UHGV virus genome: UHGV-1545242
Strand: one strand, 5' to 3'
Source: a virus
Length of the DNA: 38,625 nt
Within the stretch, counting starts at the first letter, position 1. Every line of letters begins with the position of its first letter. Of this stretch, positions 5,841 to 38,625 are shown piece by piece. Below the pieces are notes generated by a model. That model was not told where the DNA came from. It made no database searches and was given only the letters and a program-made list of their open reading frames with translations. The translations under genes were made by a program, and so were the position numbers.

Positions 5841-5921
5841 AACTTGTTACCTCGGTCTGTTACTGTTGGGGTAATAATTATGCTTATTTGGTTTGGTGTC
5901 AATAGATATGAGTTAAAAAAA

Positions 5922-5936
5922 TTACCCGTAAGGTAA
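5922..5936. promoter_or_regulatory. Operator-like palindrome TTACC-N5-GGTAA (leftward early promoter region)
   Basis: ttacccgtaaggtaa between repressor terminator and first leftward gene. Confidence 0.6.
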
Positions 5937-5993: not shown

Positions 5994-6578
5994 TTATTGT
6001 TTGCTTTTTTCGTTCTGGTTGATGACAAATTCAATGTAACTTTCGATCTTTGCTTTCTCGGTTTCGGGTAACAATGCGTAGCGTGAGCGGTCATAGTTGA
6101 TAGTCGCAGGGTCGTGCGGGTGAATCAGTAGTTCATATCCGTGACGCCCGAATGCGGATGCAACATTCTCCAGGGTGGAAATGGAAACGCTGACCTCATT
6201 GTTTAACAGGCGGCTGATTGTCACCTGGGCGACGCCGGATGCGCGGTGAAGTTTTCCCTGCGTTGAAAGGTCGCGGCTTTCGCTCATCCAGCGTTCCAGG
6301 TTGTGAGCCGCCAGCTGACCAATGTCGCTTGGGCCGACAGGCTGAAAACCTTCCTGAGAAAGCGAGCGATCGATATCAAGCCAGTTACGGGGTTTATTGG
6401 CGGCAGCTTCAATTTTTCGCGCAACCTGGTCGCCGATAACCTTCTTGCCAAGAGCCCAGCGGTTTACCAGATTTGCCTGAGTTCCAAGTTTTTCTGCCAT
6501 CCGCGTCTGAACACCATTGAATTCACGGTCGATCAAGTCGTTGAGATTTTGCCTGCGGACGTCCTGGATACTTTTCAT
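5994..6578 (-). CDS. Prophage repressor (CI-like position), HTH DNA-binding protein without S24 peptidase domain
   Basis: Divergent from Cro-like gene; two HTH-like segments (MAEKLGTQANLVNRW; GVAQVTISRLLNNE); no Ala-Gly/Ser-Lys LexA-like autocleavage motifs seen. Confidence 0.7.
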   Translation of the reverse strand: MKSIQDVRRQNLNDLIDREFNGVQTRMAEKLGTQANLVNRWALGKKVIGDQVARKIEAAANKPRNWLDIDRSLSQEGFQPVGPSDIGQLAAHNLERWMSESRDLSTQGKLHRASGVAQVTISRLLNNEVSVSISTLENVASAFGRHGYELLIHPHDPATINYDRSRYALLPETEKAKIESYIEFVINQNEKSKQ

Positions 6579-6633: not shown

Positions 6634-6648
6634 TTACCCAACAGGTAA
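6634..6648. promoter_or_regulatory. Operator-like palindrome TTACC-N5-GGTAA (repressor/cro intergenic)
   Basis: ttacccaacaggtaa. Confidence 0.6.
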
Positions 6649-6681: not shown

Positions 6682-6696
6682 TTACCTTATGGGTGA
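6682..6696. promoter_or_regulatory. Operator-like near-palindrome TTACC-N5-GGTGA (repressor/cro intergenic)
   Basis: ttaccttatgggtga, 48 bp from previous site. Confidence 0.5.
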
Positions 6697-7018: not shown

Positions 7019-7033
7019 GTACCTCAAAGGTAA
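7019..7033. promoter_or_regulatory. Operator-like near-palindrome GTACC-N5-GGTAA after cro terminator
   Basis: gtacctcaaaggtaa, preceded by atctattcgt. Confidence 0.45.
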
Positions 7034-7329: not shown

Positions 7330-8163
7330 ATGAGCAGACATGCAACAGATTGGGCCTGGGAGACAGATCCAGGTAGCTCATCATTAAAGCTCATACTGCT
7401 CTCGATGGCTGACAGAGCCGATGAATATAACCTCTGCTACCCCAGCATAGAACGCCTCGTTAAAGACACTTGCCTGAATAAAAAAACCGTGCAGGCCGGG
7501 CTTATATCGCTCATGAAAATGGGGCTTATTTCAGATACCGGAGAGAGAAAGGGAGCGACAAAAAGAGTGCGGGTTTTCTCTCTTAATATAACCAAAAACG
7601 GGAACATTAAAGGCAACCGGGAGGGGGGCAATGAACCCGAAAACGGTAATGTTACCGAAAACGGGAATATACCCAAAAACGGGATGTTGAATGATCCCAA
7701 AAACGGGATGTTGAATGATCCCAAAAACGGGATCCAGAACCAGTCATATAACCAGTCATTTAACCAAGAGAGGGAGAGCAGGACAAAAACCGGGGATTCT
7801 GTGCCTCATGACCCCGGCGCAAACAACGCCGTGATGAATAACTTTGTTCCTCCTGGTGGGCCAGGGCAATTAGGTAAATTTGTCATGCATGAACAATGGC
7901 AGCCATCAGATGACTTTCTTCGGAAAAGCTCATTGCAGGGAATCTACCTGGACAGTCTGCCAACGGCACAGGAACTTGCAGAGTTCAGAATTTACTGGAT
8001 GGCTGAGGGTAAGGCATACCATCAGGCACAGTGGGAGCAGAAGCTGGCAAGGCGCATCCAGTTCTGTAGACAGAAATCAGGTGAAGTCAGAAAGAGCCTT
8101 GACTGGCATAACACTGACTGGATAGATGAGGTGTGGGATGAAATCAACTCCAGAACTTCTTAA
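7330..8163 (+). CDS. Replication initiator (lambda O-like / replisome organiser) with internal origin iterons
   Basis: N-terminal HTH region (WETDPGSSSLKLILLSMADRADEYNLCYPSIERL), followed by iteron-encoded repeats and a C-terminal domain preceding the P-like gene. Confidence 0.75.
   Translation: MSRHATDWAWETDPGSSSLKLILLSMADRADEYNLCYPSIERLVKDTCLNKKTVQAGLISLMKMGLISDTGERKGATKRVRVFSLNITKNGNIKGNREGGNEPENGNVTENGNIPKNGMLNDPKNGMLNDPKNGIQNQSYNQSFNQERESRTKTGDSVPHDPGANNAVMNNFVPPGGPGQLGKFVMHEQWQPSDDFLRKSSLQGIYLDSLPTAQELAEFRIYWMAEGKAYHQAQWEQKLARRIQFCRQKSGEVRKSLDWHNTDWIDEVWDEINSRTS
7592..7732. repeat. Iteron array, candidate replication origin inside the initiator gene
   Basis: Six copies of CC(C/G)AAAACGGGA at 7592, 7636, 7655, 7672, 7696, 7720 including a perfect 24-bp tandem CCCAAAAACGGGATGTTGAATGAT; followed by AT-richer direct repeat cagtcatataacc/cagtcatttaacc. 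Confidence 0.65.
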
Positions 8164-8920
8164 TGAGTACGATCGCTTTCGTGGTGGGCATGACCACTCG
8201 ACGGCGGTTGCTTCTGCTGACGATGAAAGGGCAAAGAAGGAGCAGGTTGCAAGAATTTTCAACGAAATGTTTGTCCAGTTACAGGCTGCATTTCCAGGCA
8301 GCATCGCTGCTATCAGCGAGCAAGGAAAGCTAAACGAATTTCGAAAACAATGGATGCTTGCGTTTCTGGAGAATGGGATCACAACAATGGAACAGGTTAA
8401 CGCTGGTATGCGCCACGCCCGCGCCAGTGAATCTCCGTTCTGGCCGTCGCCAGGGCAATTTATCAAGTGGTGTAAAGACAGCAAGATGGTTCTTGGCGTC
8501 ACCATTGACGATGTGATGGCGGAGTTTCACCGGTACAGCAAGGAAAAAAGTTTATATCCTGGTGGTCCCGAAAGATTCCCGTGGCGACATCCGGTTATGT
8601 ACTGGGTCGTATGTGATACCCGCCGTGCAATGTATCAGCGCCAGCTTAGCGAGATTGAGGTTGAGAAACACGCGCGCAGGCTGCTCGATGATTGGGCGAA
8701 AAAGGTGGCTTCCGGACAGCAGATACCCGATCCGGTGATCAGCATACAGGCAAAGCCAGAACCCATGAGTACACCTCCGGACACAGGGAGAGACGTTTAC
8801 CATCCACCAGGGCGAAGTTTCGGGTGCATGCCTAACGCCGCCACCCTTGGGGGAATAACACCGGCGCAGTGGCTGATGGAGGAATACAGGCGGGGAAAGG
8901 CGGCAGGATTTATCAAGTAA
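8138..8920 (+). CDS. Replication protein P-like (DnaB helicase loader)
   Basis: Block EFRKQWMLAFLENGITTMEQVNAGMRHAR...PFWPSPGQFIKWC closely parallels lambda P central region as I recall it. Confidence 0.85.
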   Translation: MKSTPELLNEYDRFRGGHDHSTAVASADDERAKKEQVARIFNEMFVQLQAAFPGSIAAISEQGKLNEFRKQWMLAFLENGITTMEQVNAGMRHARASESPFWPSPGQFIKWCKDSKMVLGVTIDDVMAEFHRYSKEKSLYPGGPERFPWRHPVMYWVVCDTRRAMYQRQLSEIEVEKHARRLLDDWAKKVASGQQIPDPVISIQAKPEPMSTPPDTGRDVYHPPGRSFGCMPNAATLGGITPAQWLMEEYRRGKAAGFIK

Positions 8921-8957
8921 TACCAGCGCGATAGCGCATTTTTTTACGTCTCGATGA

Positions 8958-8972
8958 TTACCTGCTGGGTAA
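8958..8972. promoter_or_regulatory. Operator-like palindrome TTACC-N5-GGTAA downstream of P-like gene
   Basis: ttacctgctgggtaa. Confidence 0.55.
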
Positions 8973-9019
8973 TAAAATATTCTAAAATCTATTGATTTAG
9001 TGTCTTATGTGGTTTTTAA

Positions 9020-9034
9020 TTACCTCAGGGGTAA
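9020..9034. promoter_or_regulatory. Operator-like palindrome TTACC-N5-GGTAA overlapping RBS of frameshifted gene
   Basis: ttacctcaggggtaa, 62 bp from previous site, AT-rich promoter-like DNA between. Confidence 0.55.
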
Positions 9035-9037
9035 ATC

Positions 9038-9381
9038 ATGAGAAAACAGATACAGGCTCTTGGTCGACTCAAAACAGGCCAGATGAACAAAACAGAATCT
9101 GCGTATTGCCAGCACCTTGAGCAGCGTAAACGTGCAGGGGAAACGCCTGGTATCGGTTCGAGGGTATCAAGCTGCGGTTAGCTGATAACACGTTTTATAC
9201 GCCAGATTTCGCTGTGATGCTCGCCACCGGCGAGATGGAACTGCACGAAGTGAAAGGTTTCTGGACCGACGACGCCAGGGTGAAAACCAAAGTCGCCGCA
9301 GATCAGTATCCGTTCCGAATCATCGGGGTAACGGTTAAGCCAAAGAAAGCAGGTGGTGGCTGGAACATCGAAGAGTTCTGA
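9038..9381 (+). pseudogene. Frameshifted gene (recalled as DUF1064 family); reading frame broken near 9150-9180
   Basis: ATG at 9038 reads 47 codons to TAG at 9179; a second frame is open from ~9146 to TGA 9379 (WYRFEGIKLRLADNTFYTPDF...); total 344 nt, not a multiple of 3. Confidence 0.5.
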
Positions 9382-9442
9382 ATCGACGATCTTTTTAGTT
9401 ATCAATGTAATCAATAAGTTATGTGGATAAGCGAGGGTAAAG

Positions 9443-9880
9443 ATGGAAAGTAATATCAAAGGGTTAGTTTCCGCCGGGCATGAGATGGCTTCGGAACTGA
9501 AAGCAGAATGTGGTGCCGTTGATATGCGCAGTGTGGCAAAGCTGATCAGCGATTTGGCAACGCAACTGGAAGTGCAACTGGTGCGTGCTAATGCGCTGGC
9601 GGCGGAGAATGCGCTGGCTCGTAAAGCAGTTCAGGCATTTTGCGATGTTGTTGGCGACAGCACCGAGGTTATCTGCGAGGAGATTGGGCGAGATGGCGTT
9701 CTGGTTATTTTGGAGGCAATGAAGGCAACAGGAAATATGCCAGCCACCGATGCTTTCCTGTCTGAAGTGCGGGCGCAGGGGGTAGAGATGATGCGCGAAC
9801 ATCCAGCAATCAAACTTTGTTGTTTGACGCACATATGTGATGAGTTAGCCGCCCAGCTTCGCAAAGGAGGCAACCAGTGA
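9443..9880 (+). CDS. Hypothetical nin-region protein
   Basis: 145-aa ORF, stop overlaps next start. Confidence 0.55.
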   Translation: MESNIKGLVSAGHEMASELKAECGAVDMRSVAKLISDLATQLEVQLVRANALAAENALARKAVQAFCDVVGDSTEVICEEIGRDGVLVILEAMKATGNMPATDAFLSEVRAQGVEMMREHPAIKLCCLTHICDELAAQLRKGGNQ

Positions 9881-12610: not shown

Positions 12611-13281
12611 ATACTGCCGCCAACTATGGTGGCTTTATTTTGCATGGTACTATTACCACAACGGTAACTATTACCACGGTGGTTATGATGCCTGCTGAAC
12701 CTAAAACCTATAAACGCAAATCAACGCAATTTAAGCCACTAACAGCAATGCAGGAGGCTTATTGCCAGTCATACATCAAAACGCCTGAAAACCAGACTCA
12801 GGCAGCGATTAACGCAGGATTCTCCCCAAATACAGCGGCAGTTAAAGCCAGTGTCATGATGCGCGACGAACGCATTCAAAAACGGATTGCCGAGTTGATG
12901 GAGGAGCGCAACAAACGAATGCGCGTCAGTGCTGATTACGTTCTCATGCGCCTGGTGGAGATCGACCAGATGGACGTGATTGATATCCTCAACGACGATG
13001 GGAGCCTTAAGCCAATCCGCGAGTGGCCGAAAATCTGGCGCACTACGCTTAGCGGCTTTGATCTGTCATCGACCATCATGAACATGAACGAGGATTCGAT
13101 AGAGACAATCCTCAAAAAAATTAAATGGCCTGACAAGGTGAAGAACCTCGAACTGATTGGTAAGCACGTCGACGTCAACGCATTCAAAGAACGCCTGGAT
13201 GTTAATGTGAATGTGACAATTGCTGATCGCATAGCAGCAGCCAGGAAGCGACTCAAAGAACGTCAGGATGGTAATCAGTGA
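12607..13281 (+). CDS. Terminase small subunit
   Basis: Segment AMQEAYCQSYIKTPENQTQAAINAGFSPNTAAVKASVMMRDERIQKRIAEL matches the Terminase_2 small-subunit pattern; start may be internal (MMPAEP at ~12685). Confidence 0.75.
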   Translation: MNTAANYGGFILHGTITTTVTITTVVMMPAEPKTYKRKSTQFKPLTAMQEAYCQSYIKTPENQTQAAINAGFSPNTAAVKASVMMRDERIQKRIAELMEERNKRMRVSADYVLMRLVEIDQMDVIDILNDDGSLKPIREWPKIWRTTLSGFDLSSTIMNMNEDSIETILKKIKWPDKVKNLELIGKHVDVNAFKERLDVNVNVTIADRIAAARKRLKERQDGNQ

Positions 13282-15375: not shown

Positions 15376-15452
15376 TGGCGTGGCATGCAGGATTCGAACC
15401 TGCGACCAACCGCTTAGAAGGCGGTTGCTCTGTCCAACTGAGCTAATGCCAC
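15376..15452 (-). tRNA. tRNA-Arg (anticodon UCU)
   Basis: Manual fold of minus-strand sequence: 7-bp acceptor stem GTGGCAT/ATGCCAC, D arm GCTC/GAGC, anticodon stem ACCGC/GCGGT with loop CTTCTAA, T arm GCAGG-TTCGAAT-CCTGC, encoded CCA. Confidence 0.85.
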
Positions 15453-15774: not shown

Positions 15775-15789
15775 TTACCTGAAAGGTAA
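15775..15789. promoter_or_regulatory. Operator-like palindrome TTACC-N5-GGTAA upstream of portal/late operon
   Basis: ttacctgaaaggtaa, identical to site at 32822. Confidence 0.55.
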
Positions 15790-32821: not shown

Positions 32822-32836
32822 GTTTTGCAAATTACC
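32822..32836. promoter_or_regulatory. Operator-like palindrome TTACC-N5-GGTAA in divergent region upstream of tailspike
   Basis: ttacctgaaaggtaa; followed by atctattcgta, also seen at 7011-7021. Confidence 0.55.
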
Positions 32837-32950
32837 TGAAAGGTAATATCTATTCGTATTTACAGTCTTTCTATCCATATGTGGTTTTCCAGGTAATAGA
32901 ATAACCAGATATGCGGCGCAACGGGTGCTGCGACTATCTGGAGATTTAAC

Positions 32951-35900
32951 ATGACGGTCTCAACCGAAGTTGACCACAACGAATACACCGGTAACGGCGT
33001 TACGACATCGTTTCCGTATACTTTTCGAATTTTCAGAAAATCAGACCTGGTTGTTCAGGTGTCTGACCTGAACGGAAACGTAACAGAATTGGTTCTGGAT
33101 ACCGGTTATACGGTAACTGGGGCGGGCACTTATAGTGGCGGTTCTGTGGTTCTTCCGTCTCCGCTTGCTACTGGATGGCGAATTACGATAGATCGTGTGC
33201 TTGATGTAGTGCAGGAGACAGACCTTCGCAATCAGGGAAAATTTTTCCCCGAAGTGCATGAAGATGCCTTTGACTACCTGACGATGCTGATCCAGCAATG
33301 TTTTGGGTGGTTCAGACGTGCATTGATGAAACCATCTTTGCTTGCAAAATATTACGATGCAAAGCAAAACAAAATTTCTAACCTTGCAGATCCATCATTT
33401 GAGCAGGACGCTGTAAATAATCGCTCAATGCGTAATTATGTCGATGCTGCAATCGCCGGGGTTGTTGGTGGTTTTGGTTGGTTTATTCAGTATGGTTCTG
33501 GGGCTGTGTACCGAACGTTCCAGGATAAAATGCGTGATGCTATTAGCCCCAAAGATTTTGGAGCTGTTGGTGATGGTATAAATGACGATTCCACTGCAAT
33601 AAGCGCGTGCCTTGAAGCCTCATCTCCAGGTTATAAAATTGACGGATTAGGGCTTACTTTTAAAGTATCAACTCTTCCGGATGTCAGTCGATTTAAAAAT
33701 GCTCGTTTTTTATTTGAGAGAATACCGGGCCAGCCTCTTTTTTATGCTTCTGAAGATTTTATCCAGGGAGAGTTATTTAAAATTACAGATACACCGTGGT
33801 ACAACGCCTGGACGCAGGATAAAACGTTTGTATATGACAATGTCATCTATGCGCCTTTTATGGCTGGAGACCGCCATGGTGTAAATAACCTCCATGTTGC
33901 ATGGGTTCGCTCAGGAGATGACGGGAAGACCTGGACAACGCCGGAATGGCTTACAGATTTACATGAAAACTATCCCACAGTTAACTATCACTGCATGAGT
34001 ATGGGGGTTGTCAGAAATCGCCTTTTTGCTGTAATTGAGACGCGGACCGTGAGAGGAAATAAACTGCAGGTTGCAGAGTTGTGGGATCGCCCAATGAGTC
34101 GCAGCCTTCGCGTTTATGGTGGTATAACGAAAGCAGCAAATCAGCAAGTCGCTTATATTCGCATTACTGATCACGGATTATTTGCTGGTGATTTTGTCAA
34201 CTTCTCAAACTCTGGTGTTACAGGTGTTACCGGGAATATGACGGTGACTACTGTTATTGATAAAAATACCTTTACAGTTACGACGCAAAATACCCAGGAT
34301 GTGGATCAGAATAACGAGGGTAGATACTGGAGTTTTGGCACATCATTTCACTCGTCACCATGGAGAAAAACCAGTCTTGGAACTATTCCTTCTTTTGTTG
34401 ACGGAAGCACTCCTGTTACTGAGATTCACAGTTTTGCGACGATTAGCGATAACAGTTTTGCTGTTGGCTACCATAATGGTGATATTGGTCCACGCGAGCT
34501 TGGGATACTCTATTTCTCTGATGCTTTCGGTTCTCCTGGTAGCTTTGTTCGCAGACGCATACCTGTAGAATATGAGGCGAATGCATCTGAGCCATGTGTA
34601 AAATATTATGATGGCATTCTGTATCTGACGACCAGGGGGACATTAAGTACTCAACCCGGTAGTTCATTGCACAGAAGCTCTGATTTAGGTACATCATGGA
34701 ATTCTCTTCGCTTCCCAAATAATGTTCATCACTCAAACCTTCCTTTTGCCAAAGTTGGCGATGAGCTGATTATTTTTGGCAGTGAGCGCGCATTTGGTGA
34801 GTGGGAAGGAGGAGAACCTGATAACCGTTATGCAGGAAATTATCCAAGAACATTTATGACCAGAGTTAACGTCAATGAGTGGAGTCTGGATAATGTAGAG
34901 TGGGTTAATGTTACTGATCAGATTTATCAGGGCGGAATAGTTAACTCTGCGGTTGGTGTTGGTTCAGTTTGTATCAAAGACAACTGGCTGTACTACATTT
35001 TCGGTGGGGAAGACTTTCTAAACCCATGGAGCATAGGGGATAACAACAGAAAATATCCTTATGTTCACGATGGTCACCCGGCTGATTTGTATTGTTTCAG
35101 GGTGAAAATTAAACAGGAAGAATTTGTTTCAAGGGATTTTGTCTACGGAGCCACTCCTAACAGAACGCTTCCTACTTTTATGTCGACGTCAGGCGTGAGG
35201 ACGGTTCCTGTACCCGTTGATTTCACAGATGATGTTGCCGTCCAGTCACTGACTGTCCATGCAGGTACATCAGGACAAGTTCGCGCGGAAGTCAAACTTG
35301 AGGGTAATTACGCCATTATTGCGAAGAAAGTACCGTCTGATGATGTTACCGCTCAGAGATTAATCGTTAGCGGCGGTGAAACAACGTCTTCAGCAGATGG
35401 TGCAATGATAACGTTGCATGGTTCCGGAAGCAGTACTCCACGTCGCGCGGTATATAACGCACTCGAACATCTTTTTGAGAACGGAGATGTTAAACCTTAT
35501 CTTGATAATGTAAATGCTCTTGGTGGTCCGGGAAACAGGTTCTCGACAGTTTATCTTGGCTCCAATCCTGTGGTTACCAGTGACGGAACATTAAAGACAG
35601 AGCCGGTCTCTCCTGACGAAGCATTGCTGGATGCCTGGGGTGACGTCAGGTATATCGCTTATAAATGGCTGAACGCTGTCGCTATAAAGGGGGAAGAAGG
35701 GGCGAGGATACATCATGGTGTAATCGCGCAGCAACTTCGTGATGTTCTTATTTCTCACGGACTCATGGAAGAAGAAAGCACAACATGCCGCTATGCCTTT
35801 CTTTGCTATGACGATTATCCCGCAGTATATGATGACGTCATTACTGGCCAAAGGGAAATGCCGCTGACTGATAATGACGGGAGCATCATTGTTGATGAGG

Positions 35901-36070
35901 ATGATAATCCAGTGATGGTAATAGAAGACATCATTGAGCGCGTTGAAATAACGCCAGCAGGATCTAGATGGGGGGTCAGACCTGATCTCTTATTCTATAT
36001 CGAGGCAGCATGGCAGCGCAGAGAAATGGATAAGATAAAAGAGCGGGTTCAGTCTCTGGAAGAACGTTAA
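32951..36070 (+). CDS. Tailspike/depolymerase with C-terminal intramolecular chaperone (S74-type) domain
   Basis: 1039 aa; conserved N-terminal virion-attachment region; central DFGAVGDGINDDSTAI beta-helix start motif; C-terminal TSDGTLK...YIAYKW...RIHHGVIAQQL pattern. Confidence 0.85.
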   Translation: MTVSTEVDHNEYTGNGVTTSFPYTFRIFRKSDLVVQVSDLNGNVTELVLDTGYTVTGAGTYSGGSVVLPSPLATGWRITIDRVLDVVQETDLRNQGKFFPEVHEDAFDYLTMLIQQCFGWFRRALMKPSLLAKYYDAKQNKISNLADPSFEQDAVNNRSMRNYVDAAIAGVVGGFGWFIQYGSGAVYRTFQDKMRDAISPKDFGAVGDGINDDSTAISACLEASSPGYKIDGLGLTFKVSTLPDVSRFKNARFLFERIPGQPLFYASEDFIQGELFKITDTPWYNAWTQDKTFVYDNVIYAPFMAGDRHGVNNLHVAWVRSGDDGKTWTTPEWLTDLHENYPTVNYHCMSMGVVRNRLFAVIETRTVRGNKLQVAELWDRPMSRSLRVYGGITKAANQQVAYIRITDHGLFAGDFVNFSNSGVTGVTGNMTVTTVIDKNTFTVTTQNTQDVDQNNEGRYWSFGTSFHSSPWRKTSLGTIPSFVDGSTPVTEIHSFATISDNSFAVGYHNGDIGPRELGILYFSDAFGSPGSFVRRRIPVEYEANASEPCVKYYDGILYLTTRGTLSTQPGSSLHRSSDLGTSWNSLRFPNNVHHSNLPFAKVGDELIIFGSERAFGEWEGGEPDNRYAGNYPRTFMTRVNVNEWSLDNVEWVNVTDQIYQGGIVNSAVGVGSVCIKDNWLYYIFGGEDFLNPWSIGDNNRKYPYVHDGHPADLYCFRVKIKQEEFVSRDFVYGATPNRTLPTFMSTSGVRTVPVPVDFTDDVAVQSLTVHAGTSGQVRAEVKLEGNYAIIAKKVPSDDVTAQRLIVSGGETTSSADGAMITLHGSGSSTPRRAVYNALEHLFENGDVKPYLDNVNALGGPGNRFSTVYLGSNPVVTSDGTLKTEPVSPDEALLDAWGDVRYIAYKWLNAVAIKGEEGARIHHGVIAQQLRDVLISHGLMEEESTTCRYAFLCYDDYPAVYDDVITGQREMPLTDNDGSIIVDEDDNPVMVIEDIIERVEITPAGSRWGVRPDLLFYIEAAWQRREMDKIKERVQSLEER

Positions 36071-38211: not shown

Positions 38212-38327
38212 ATATAAAACGGTACGGGAAAAATTGAGATTTGGAAAAATGTTATCACTCAATTGGTTATGGTTATCGTAAATAATTGAGTGGGAATGAT
38301 TTTGATCCCTGCACTATGAATGAACAA

Positions 38328-38355
38328 AACCCTCTGTTACTACAGAGGGTTTTTT
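38328..38355 (+). repeat. Right copy of boundary direct repeat (attR candidate); hairpin plus T-run, rho-independent terminator-like
   Basis: aaccctctgttactacagagggtttttt; near-identical to 47-74. Confidence 0.65.
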
Positions 38356-38393
38356 ATCTTCAAGAATTATAGGCTTGAAGTTACTTACATCGA

Positions 38394-38625
38394 TTAATTA
38401 AACCAGCTGTCCGATTTGTTCTCTTCTGCTTTGCCCACGCTTTTCATCAGATCGCGACCGCCTTCAGTCATATTTCTGTTTGCGTCAGCTTCAGATTGCA
38501 CCACATCGGTTTGCGCAGCTTTGTGCTTCAGTTCCTGATCGATAAATTCGTTTTCTCGCTTAACGCGGGCTGAACCGCCCCGGGTTTCCTGGAGAGTGTT
38601 TTATCTGTGAACTCAGGCTGCCAGA
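38394..38625 (-). CDS. 3' end of flanking host gene (partial, convergent to prophage end)
   Basis: Minus-strand frame open to window edge, ending ...MTEGGRDLMKSVGKAEENKSDSWFN; lies outside the right boundary repeat. Confidence 0.4.

Follow-up and report, generated by a model that had tools for sequence, protein, structure and literature searches.

A single-base deletion splits the gene of a predicted DUF1064 nuclease in a phiV10-like prophage of Escherichia coli

Small endonucleases that act on branched DNA have been described in several phages and in archaea. T7 endonuclease I, encoded by gene 3, and the archaeal Hjc are small junction-resolving enzymes of the PD-(D/E)XK type, and the likeness of the DUF1064 proteins to them lies in the predicted fold. 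Lambda Rap (also known as NinG), RusA and G44P of phage SPP1 are non-essential phage branch or junction endonucleases for which host enzymes can substitute (PMC3485210). The folds and families of these three proteins are unrelated to DUF1064, and their likeness to the role proposed below for this family is functional only; in particular, SPP1 G44P was considered as a possible DUF1064 protein and discarded, given that it is RusA-like according to the same report, which leaves a functional analogy. For DUF1064 itself, the PD-(D/E)XK fold that appears in publications is a prediction made without experiments (PMC1189080, PMC3424549).

In the phiV10-like phages (Uetakevirus) a DUF1064 gene occupies a constant place. 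The genes PhiV10p45 of phiV10 (YP_512300.1), that of ZX5 (QTH80035.1) and SPN1S_0047 are found at the same locus, after the DnaT-like and lambda-P-like genes and before an eae-like gene, and the reference copies are intact ORFs of 114 codons. In this work we analyzed a window of 38,625 nucleotides (UHGV virus genome UHGV-1545242), which is the entire JGI contig 3300045988|Ga0495776_185771, and in which the copy of this gene is split because a T is missing after codon 35. The DNA of the gene is 96-97% identical to that of E. coli phages and 85% identical to that of SPN1S, and its start, its stop and the palindromes upstream of it are shared by the window and the phiV10-like reference phages.

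Rather than the genome of a free phage, the window represents a phiV10-like prophage inserted at the 3' end of the E. coli guaA gene. Positions 38285-38301 correspond to ATTGAGTGGGAATGATT, the att core described for ZX5 (PMC9782041). On its 3' side a remnant of yfgI (DUF5384) and the end of an IS3-family element were found (38285-38625), and E. coli IAI39 and CE10 share this right junction with 100% identity. To the left, the contig ends at the att core on the guaA side (region 1-190); to the right, it breaks off inside the IS. Full-length genes were found for the integrase, the repressor, replication, terminase, portal, capsid, tailspike and lysis, and in this otherwise intact prophage only the DUF1064 gene is divided between two frames.

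This gene is located on the + strand directly 3' of the DnaT-like gene (7330-8163) and the lambda-P-like gene (8126-8920), which agrees with a preliminary description of the sequence that had placed it just downstream of the replication module. When the frames were read again from the window sequence, the one that begins at ATG 9038 was found, as described before, to have 47 codons and to end at the premature stop TAG at 9179-9181. A second frame, in phase with position 9040, is preceded by TAA at 9127-9129 and continues to TGA at 9379-9381; its end coincides with the earlier description, and it is open already from 9130 and not from approximately 9146. The segment 9038-9381 comprises 344 nt, versus the 345 nt (114 codons and the stop) of the intact homologues. 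Since these homologues are single ORFs and the alignments show exactly one base missing, the earlier reading as one gene, of some 114 codons and with 1 nt deleted, holds.

The 5' part of the gene (9038-9143) comprises codons 1-35 and the first base of codon 36, and matches residues 1-35 of the PAS61 protein at 100% identity; the 3' part (9144-9381), in the -1 frame, comprises the remainder of codon 36 up to codon 114 and the TGA, and is 98.7% identical to residues 37-115 of the same protein. Alignment with intact homologues, the check that the preliminary description had suggested, located the indel between positions 9143 and 9144, where the window reads GGGGAAA-CGCC and the homologues carry GGGGAAATCGCC (ZX5, SPN1S and MS 196-1) or GGGGAAGTCGCC (phiV10). 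The missing base is a T that follows the AAA run and is present in all intact homologues, and the length of the G/A homopolymer is unchanged. Two details of the preliminary description had to be amended in consequence: the deletion had been attributed to the inside of the G/A homopolymer, and it had been placed at 9150-9160, whereas the motif caggggaaacg corresponds to 9135-9145 and the indel lies about 10 nt upstream of the place given there. The same single base is missing in comparison with the intact 345-nt genes of phiV10, ZX5, SPN1S, AH20E044, MS 196-1 and IAI39. The nearest allele is that of E. coli MS 196-1, which within the gene differs from the window in that T and in the stop codon (TAA versus TGA) only.

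Both parts are colinear with the intact orthologue, and a single indel of a length not divisible by three explains the break. The DUF1064 copy of the window is an ordinary and probably genuine frameshifted pseudogene of a known gene family, and does not represent a novel type of genetic element. For annotation, the two calls on this contig, of 47 and 54 residues, should be joined into a single entry and marked as a frameshifted DUF1064 pseudogene, and outside the questions of dispensability and of the use of the allele considered below, the lesion has little significance.

The intact form of the gene was analyzed from its relatives. A megablast search with the locus (8950-9450) retrieved 24 phage records, all of them phiV10-like (phiV10, ZX5, PAS61, SPN1S and others), and 534 records of complete E. 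coli genomes, where the annotation is that of one 345-nt gene encoding a 'DUF1064 domain-containing protein'. The translation of 114 residues obtained after repairing the frame matches Pfam DUF1064 (PF06356) with 28.9 bits, above the gathering threshold of 24.7. The downstream-frame fragment alone also exceeds this threshold (25.9 bits), and the 47-residue fragment alone gave no PF06356 match. The family comprises 6,833 clusters at 90% identity and 4,602 representatives at 50% identity, and the close relatives are almost uniformly single ORFs of 114 residues. Given that the homologues are uninterrupted and the window copy departs from the uninterrupted ORF of about 114 residues by its split at codon 36, we conclude that this copy is a pseudogene of DUF1064 and not a functional member of the family.

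An alignment of 61 diverse members showed that E20, D57, G74 and K85 are invariant, and that E71 and K73 are conserved in at least 90% of the sequences. The E...D...E-x-K signature of the PD-(D/E)XK nucleases is thus present, and so is the alpha-beta-beta-beta-alpha-beta core fold of these enzymes; fold and active site together identify the intact protein as a predicted PD-(D/E)XK nuclease. As for its substrate, the repaired translation matches PHROG 190, labelled 'Holliday junction resolvase', with E = 6e-43, and the intact protein is most likely a Holliday-junction or branch-specific endonuclease that would cut branched DNA. The Foldseek matches were modest (best E = 5.8e-3), and a junction resolvase and other small PD-(D/E)XK nucleases are not separated by the fold; TnsA, Bax1 and tRNA-splicing endonucleases are equally among the matches. 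T7 endonuclease I gave a weak sequence match to DUF1064, aligning the TPDF and E-x-K-G motifs, which is not significant (E = 0.21). Such a nuclease might act as a partner of the phage RecT/YqaJ recombination module and of the replication genes, and would remove branches from the DNA before packaging.

In the window the active site is divided between the two frames. The E20 codon (GAA, 9095-9097) belongs to the 5' part, and the codons for D57 (9205-9207), E71 (9247-9249) and K73 (9253-9255), all on the + strand, to the 3' part. The frame shifts at codon 36, and the ribosome would yield a peptide of 47 residues that carries E20 alone and halts at the TAG at 9179; in the conceptual product E20 is retained, and 12 out-of-frame residues precede the stop. 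The part with D57, E71 and K73 is left without a start codon upstream of D57, since the earliest possible restart codons are GTG at 9214 and ATG at 9217, both past D57 and without a Shine-Dalgarno sequence. No active product is expected from a gene in which E20 is parted from the remaining catalytic residues.

By analogy with Rap, RusA and G44P, the DUF1064 enzyme is probably dispensable, with host enzymes taking its place. Dispensability would explain both that the prophage is otherwise intact and that the broken allele persists in several phage genotypes, observations which in turn suggest that the nuclease is not needed for prophage maintenance. The prophage that lacks the T (delta-T) represents a natural knockout, which could be used to probe this uncharacterised and very widespread family of phage proteins.

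The preliminary description had offered a genuine pseudogene or an assembly error as explanations, and the evidence favours the former; we assign a probability of about 85% to a genuine mutation. Most likely, the deletion is a recent, rare and genuine loss-of-function allele in an otherwise intact phiV10-like prophage. The exact 47-residue product and the same missing T were found in three SRA-derived Logan assemblies of separate sequencing projects, ERR13187018 (L007, 3001-3344), SRR11427783 (L009, 1335-1678) and DRR848737 (L010, 1342-1685). One of them belongs to the phage strain of the window (99.94% identity over 3.6 kb), and the other two represent different mosaic genotypes that are 97-98% identical and have other neighbouring genes; it is thus unlikely that a random assembly error produced the same deletion in all of them. 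The surrounding sequence does not show the frame-breaking indels of a poor consensus: in comparison with MS 196-1 the T is the sole gap in 4.2 kb at 99.5% identity; in comparison with the IAI39 prophage (98-99.7% identity) it is the sole unpaired indel, and the final 6.1 kb are free of gaps; no further uncompensated indel occurs in about 38 kb compared with relatives at 98-99.7% identity. When 49 PAS61 proteins were mapped to the window, DUF1064 was the only one to require two frames. The competing explanation, that the organism carries an intact gene and the T was lost through an error in the consensus of the metagenome contig, draws on the rarity of the allele, which was found in none of the 154 complete-genome records of E. 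coli that match a 70-mer, in none of 10 phage records and in no IMG/VR contig, versus 93 IMG/VR loci with the intact k-mer; an exact 27-mer of the delta-T allele likewise had no match in IMG/VR, metagenome contigs or GTDB genome contigs, a result that is informative on contigs other than that of the window, since the window's own contig was missing from the matches too and is evidently not part of these collections. These absences indicate that the allele is rare. Defects of individual records also occur elsewhere in the same gene, as an inserted N in TL-2011b, and YDC107_2, a low-quality record that has a split P gene too, carries an additional A at the GGGGAAA site of the deletion. A Dcm site (CCTGG, 9146-9150) is located 3 nt downstream of the deletion, and methylated motifs may disturb long-read base calling. 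Finally, the deletion is found on two haplotypes, which, if there were two identical events, might mean a systematic artefact or a mutational hotspot. However, the lost base lies outside the homopolymer, and, with thousands of assemblies carrying the gene, a systematic error should have appeared in many more of them; together with the identical deletion in separate projects and different phage genotypes, these observations make an artefact improbable.

A genuine deletion could still leave a functional product if the ribosome or the polymerase restored the frame. Such recoding, by -1 ribosomal frameshifting or by transcriptional slippage at GGGGAAAC, would restore the full-length nuclease, and has in its favour that the shift needed is precisely -1, that GGGAAAC (9138-9144) resembles a known slippery heptamer, and that the downstream frame has no second lesion in the four deletion alleles (4/4); the differences between deletion haplotypes, being also variants of intact alleles, are uninformative on selection after the shift. 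The heptamer, however, is in phase with the outgoing frame, and the codons of the incoming frame are GGG GAA ACG, whose tRNAs are unable to re-pair once they have slipped by -1. Downstream, the 87 nt of 9144-9230 fold with -21.7 kcal/mol (z = +0.55 versus shuffles), which is no stable stimulatory structure. The phase of the heptamer, the tRNA re-pairing and this downstream RNA all speak against programmed frameshifting. As for slippage, runs of three A and four G are far too short. Moreover, the two-frame arrangement was seen in 0 of 154 E. coli records, 0 of 10 phage records and 0 of 93 IMG/VR loci, and nearly all homologues are a single uninterrupted ORF; hence we regard recoding as very improbable. 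Even less credible, to the point of being nearly negligible, is that two separate small genes of 47 and about 54 residues mimic a split gene. The JGI gene caller did annotate both pieces on this contig as separate genes, the second of 54 residues (9217-9381), and the PHROGs family phrog_18669, also of 54 residues, matches residues 61-114, which indicates that gene calling has produced such fragments from other phage genomes as well. An exact look-up of the 55-residue, GTG-initiated version of the C-terminal product found no record of it, the JGI call being the ATG version. Nevertheless, both pieces align end to end with one protein of 114 residues at 99-100% identity, the last 12 residues of the 47-residue product are out of frame, the 54-residue piece has neither a Shine-Dalgarno sequence nor D57, and the two-piece arrangement is seen with this same deletion only. 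Homologues formed by two small genes in the same arrangement had been named in the preliminary description as the observation that would speak against a split gene, and those examined are nearly all single ORFs.

Taking the deletion as a genuine mutation, its distribution among the prophages deserves attention. The delta-T allele is found on two downstream haplotypes, each of which is also known with the intact gene (L046/L056 and L072/L030), which implies that the deletion arose once and was then spread by recombination, or else occurred twice, independently and identically. In all alleles whose SNP patterns were compared, the stretch surrounding it (approximately 8965-9203) is conserved, so that these patterns are compatible with one deletion that spread as well as with two. 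A loss-of-function allele that circulates or recurs among phiV10-like prophages, owing to a hotspot or to an advantage of nuclease loss in lysogens, is a tentative and rather unlikely reading, suggested by the presence of at least two downstream haplotypes, by the three mosaic genotypes and by the additional A in a second record at the same GGGGAAAT site. If nuclease loss were favoured in lysogens, the reason might be, for instance, that leaky expression of a branch-cutting nuclease harms the host.

Other lesions of the gene are known. E. coli 45E (NZ_CM147845.1, AC0BM6_RS04875) carries the same gene in the same type of prophage, also of 344 nt with a 1-nt deletion and labelled 'frameshifted' by PGAP; its lesion is independent, since a C is lost at codon 64 whereas the window lacks a T at codon 36. 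Other variants in the DUF1064 clusters include C-terminal and N-terminal frameshifts, an in-frame deletion that removes the catalytic TPDF segment, and fusions with adjacent genes. Among the 90 IMG/VR loci that cover the gene completely, 87 have an intact ORF of 114-117 residues. These scattered lesions are the ordinary background of decay and error of a small accessory gene. A mosaic allele of 117 residues, in which the C-terminal half is replaced and D-V-K stands for E-V-K, was observed in the IMG/VR loci L019, L055, L090 and L108.

The region upstream of the DUF1064 gene carries several elements that could control its expression. Between the P-like gene and the DUF1064 gene, a terminator-like hairpin, GCGC-GATA-GCGC followed by a run of seven T, is located at 8926-8945 on the + strand (-7.4 kcal/mol, z = -1.87), and the homologous site of phiV10 is annotated as a putative rho-independent terminator; a scan with a consensus terminator did not call the 8926-8945 hairpin, whose stem has only four pairs. 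A candidate sigma-70 promoter, TTGATT-17 nt-TTTAAT, can be read at 8992-9020 on the + strand; a promoter scan that demands A at position 2 of the -10 hexamer did not report it. The palindrome TTACCTCAGGGGTAA at 9020-9034, assigned to neither strand, covers the Shine-Dalgarno sequence AGGGG (9027-9031) and is conserved in phiV10, ZX5 and SPN1S. A second, operator-like copy, TTACCTGCTGGGTAA, lies 62 bp upstream (8958-8972, likewise without strand) and has a homologous copy in PAS61. The DUF1064 gene would thus probably head its own regulated transcription unit, behind a terminator, with the two palindromes and the candidate promoter upstream of its start.

The preliminary description had reported an operator palindrome over the ribosome binding site and had taken it as proof that the gene was once regulated. 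The palindrome is real, whereas regulation is plausible and only partly borne out. Allowing one mismatch, TTACC-N5-GGTAA occurs at 12 sites in the window versus 0.58 expected, and none of 100 shuffles reached 12. The extended consensus is approximately ATTACCT-N3-AGGTAAT, with a core of 15 bp. As an RNA hairpin that hides the ribosome binding site, the palindrome at 9020-9034 was discarded, its fold (-4.2 kcal/mol, z = +0.36) being no stabler than those of shuffles; in view of this weak fold, a DNA-binding site fits better. TTACC-N5-GGTAA is probably the operator of a phage regulator. A literature search gave nothing usable on published operators of phiV10 or epsilon15 phages and no description of these palindromes. 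The 12 sites are located at 136-150, 5860-5874, 5922-5936, 6634-6648, 6682-6696, 7019-7033, 8958-8972, 9020-9034, 12653-12667, 12671-12685, 15775-15789 and 32832-32846. They are found upstream of the integrase gene, at the early operon read leftward, between the gene of the repressor (5994-6578, - strand; 194 residues with two HTH motifs) and the rightward gene at the cro position, ahead of the replication genes, the DUF1064 gene and the portal gene block, just inside terS, and beside the tailspike gene. Most of them stand at the heads of gene blocks, and 11 are at homologous positions in PAS61; the set looks like a genome-wide network of putative operators of one phage regulator.

Other observations concern the prophage and its source. 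The tailspike ORF (32951-36070) encodes 1039 residues and lies in a stretch 99.7% identical to the IAI39 prophage, whose equivalent gene, also of 1039 residues, is annotated as an endosialidase catalytic beta-propeller protein; the window prophage therefore probably targets K1-capsulated E. coli. The PAS61 tailspike shares the first 161 residues only. JGI sample 3300045988, from which the window derives, contains more than 20 different phiV10-like viral contigs with the intact allele (among the IMG/VR loci L016-L108), which indicates a very large or pooled data set with many related E. coli prophages. A tRNA-Arg gene (anticodon TCT) occupies 15376-15452 on the - strand, separating the terminase genes from the portal gene block; the prophages of AH20E044, MS 196-1 and IAI39 have it annotated at the corresponding place.
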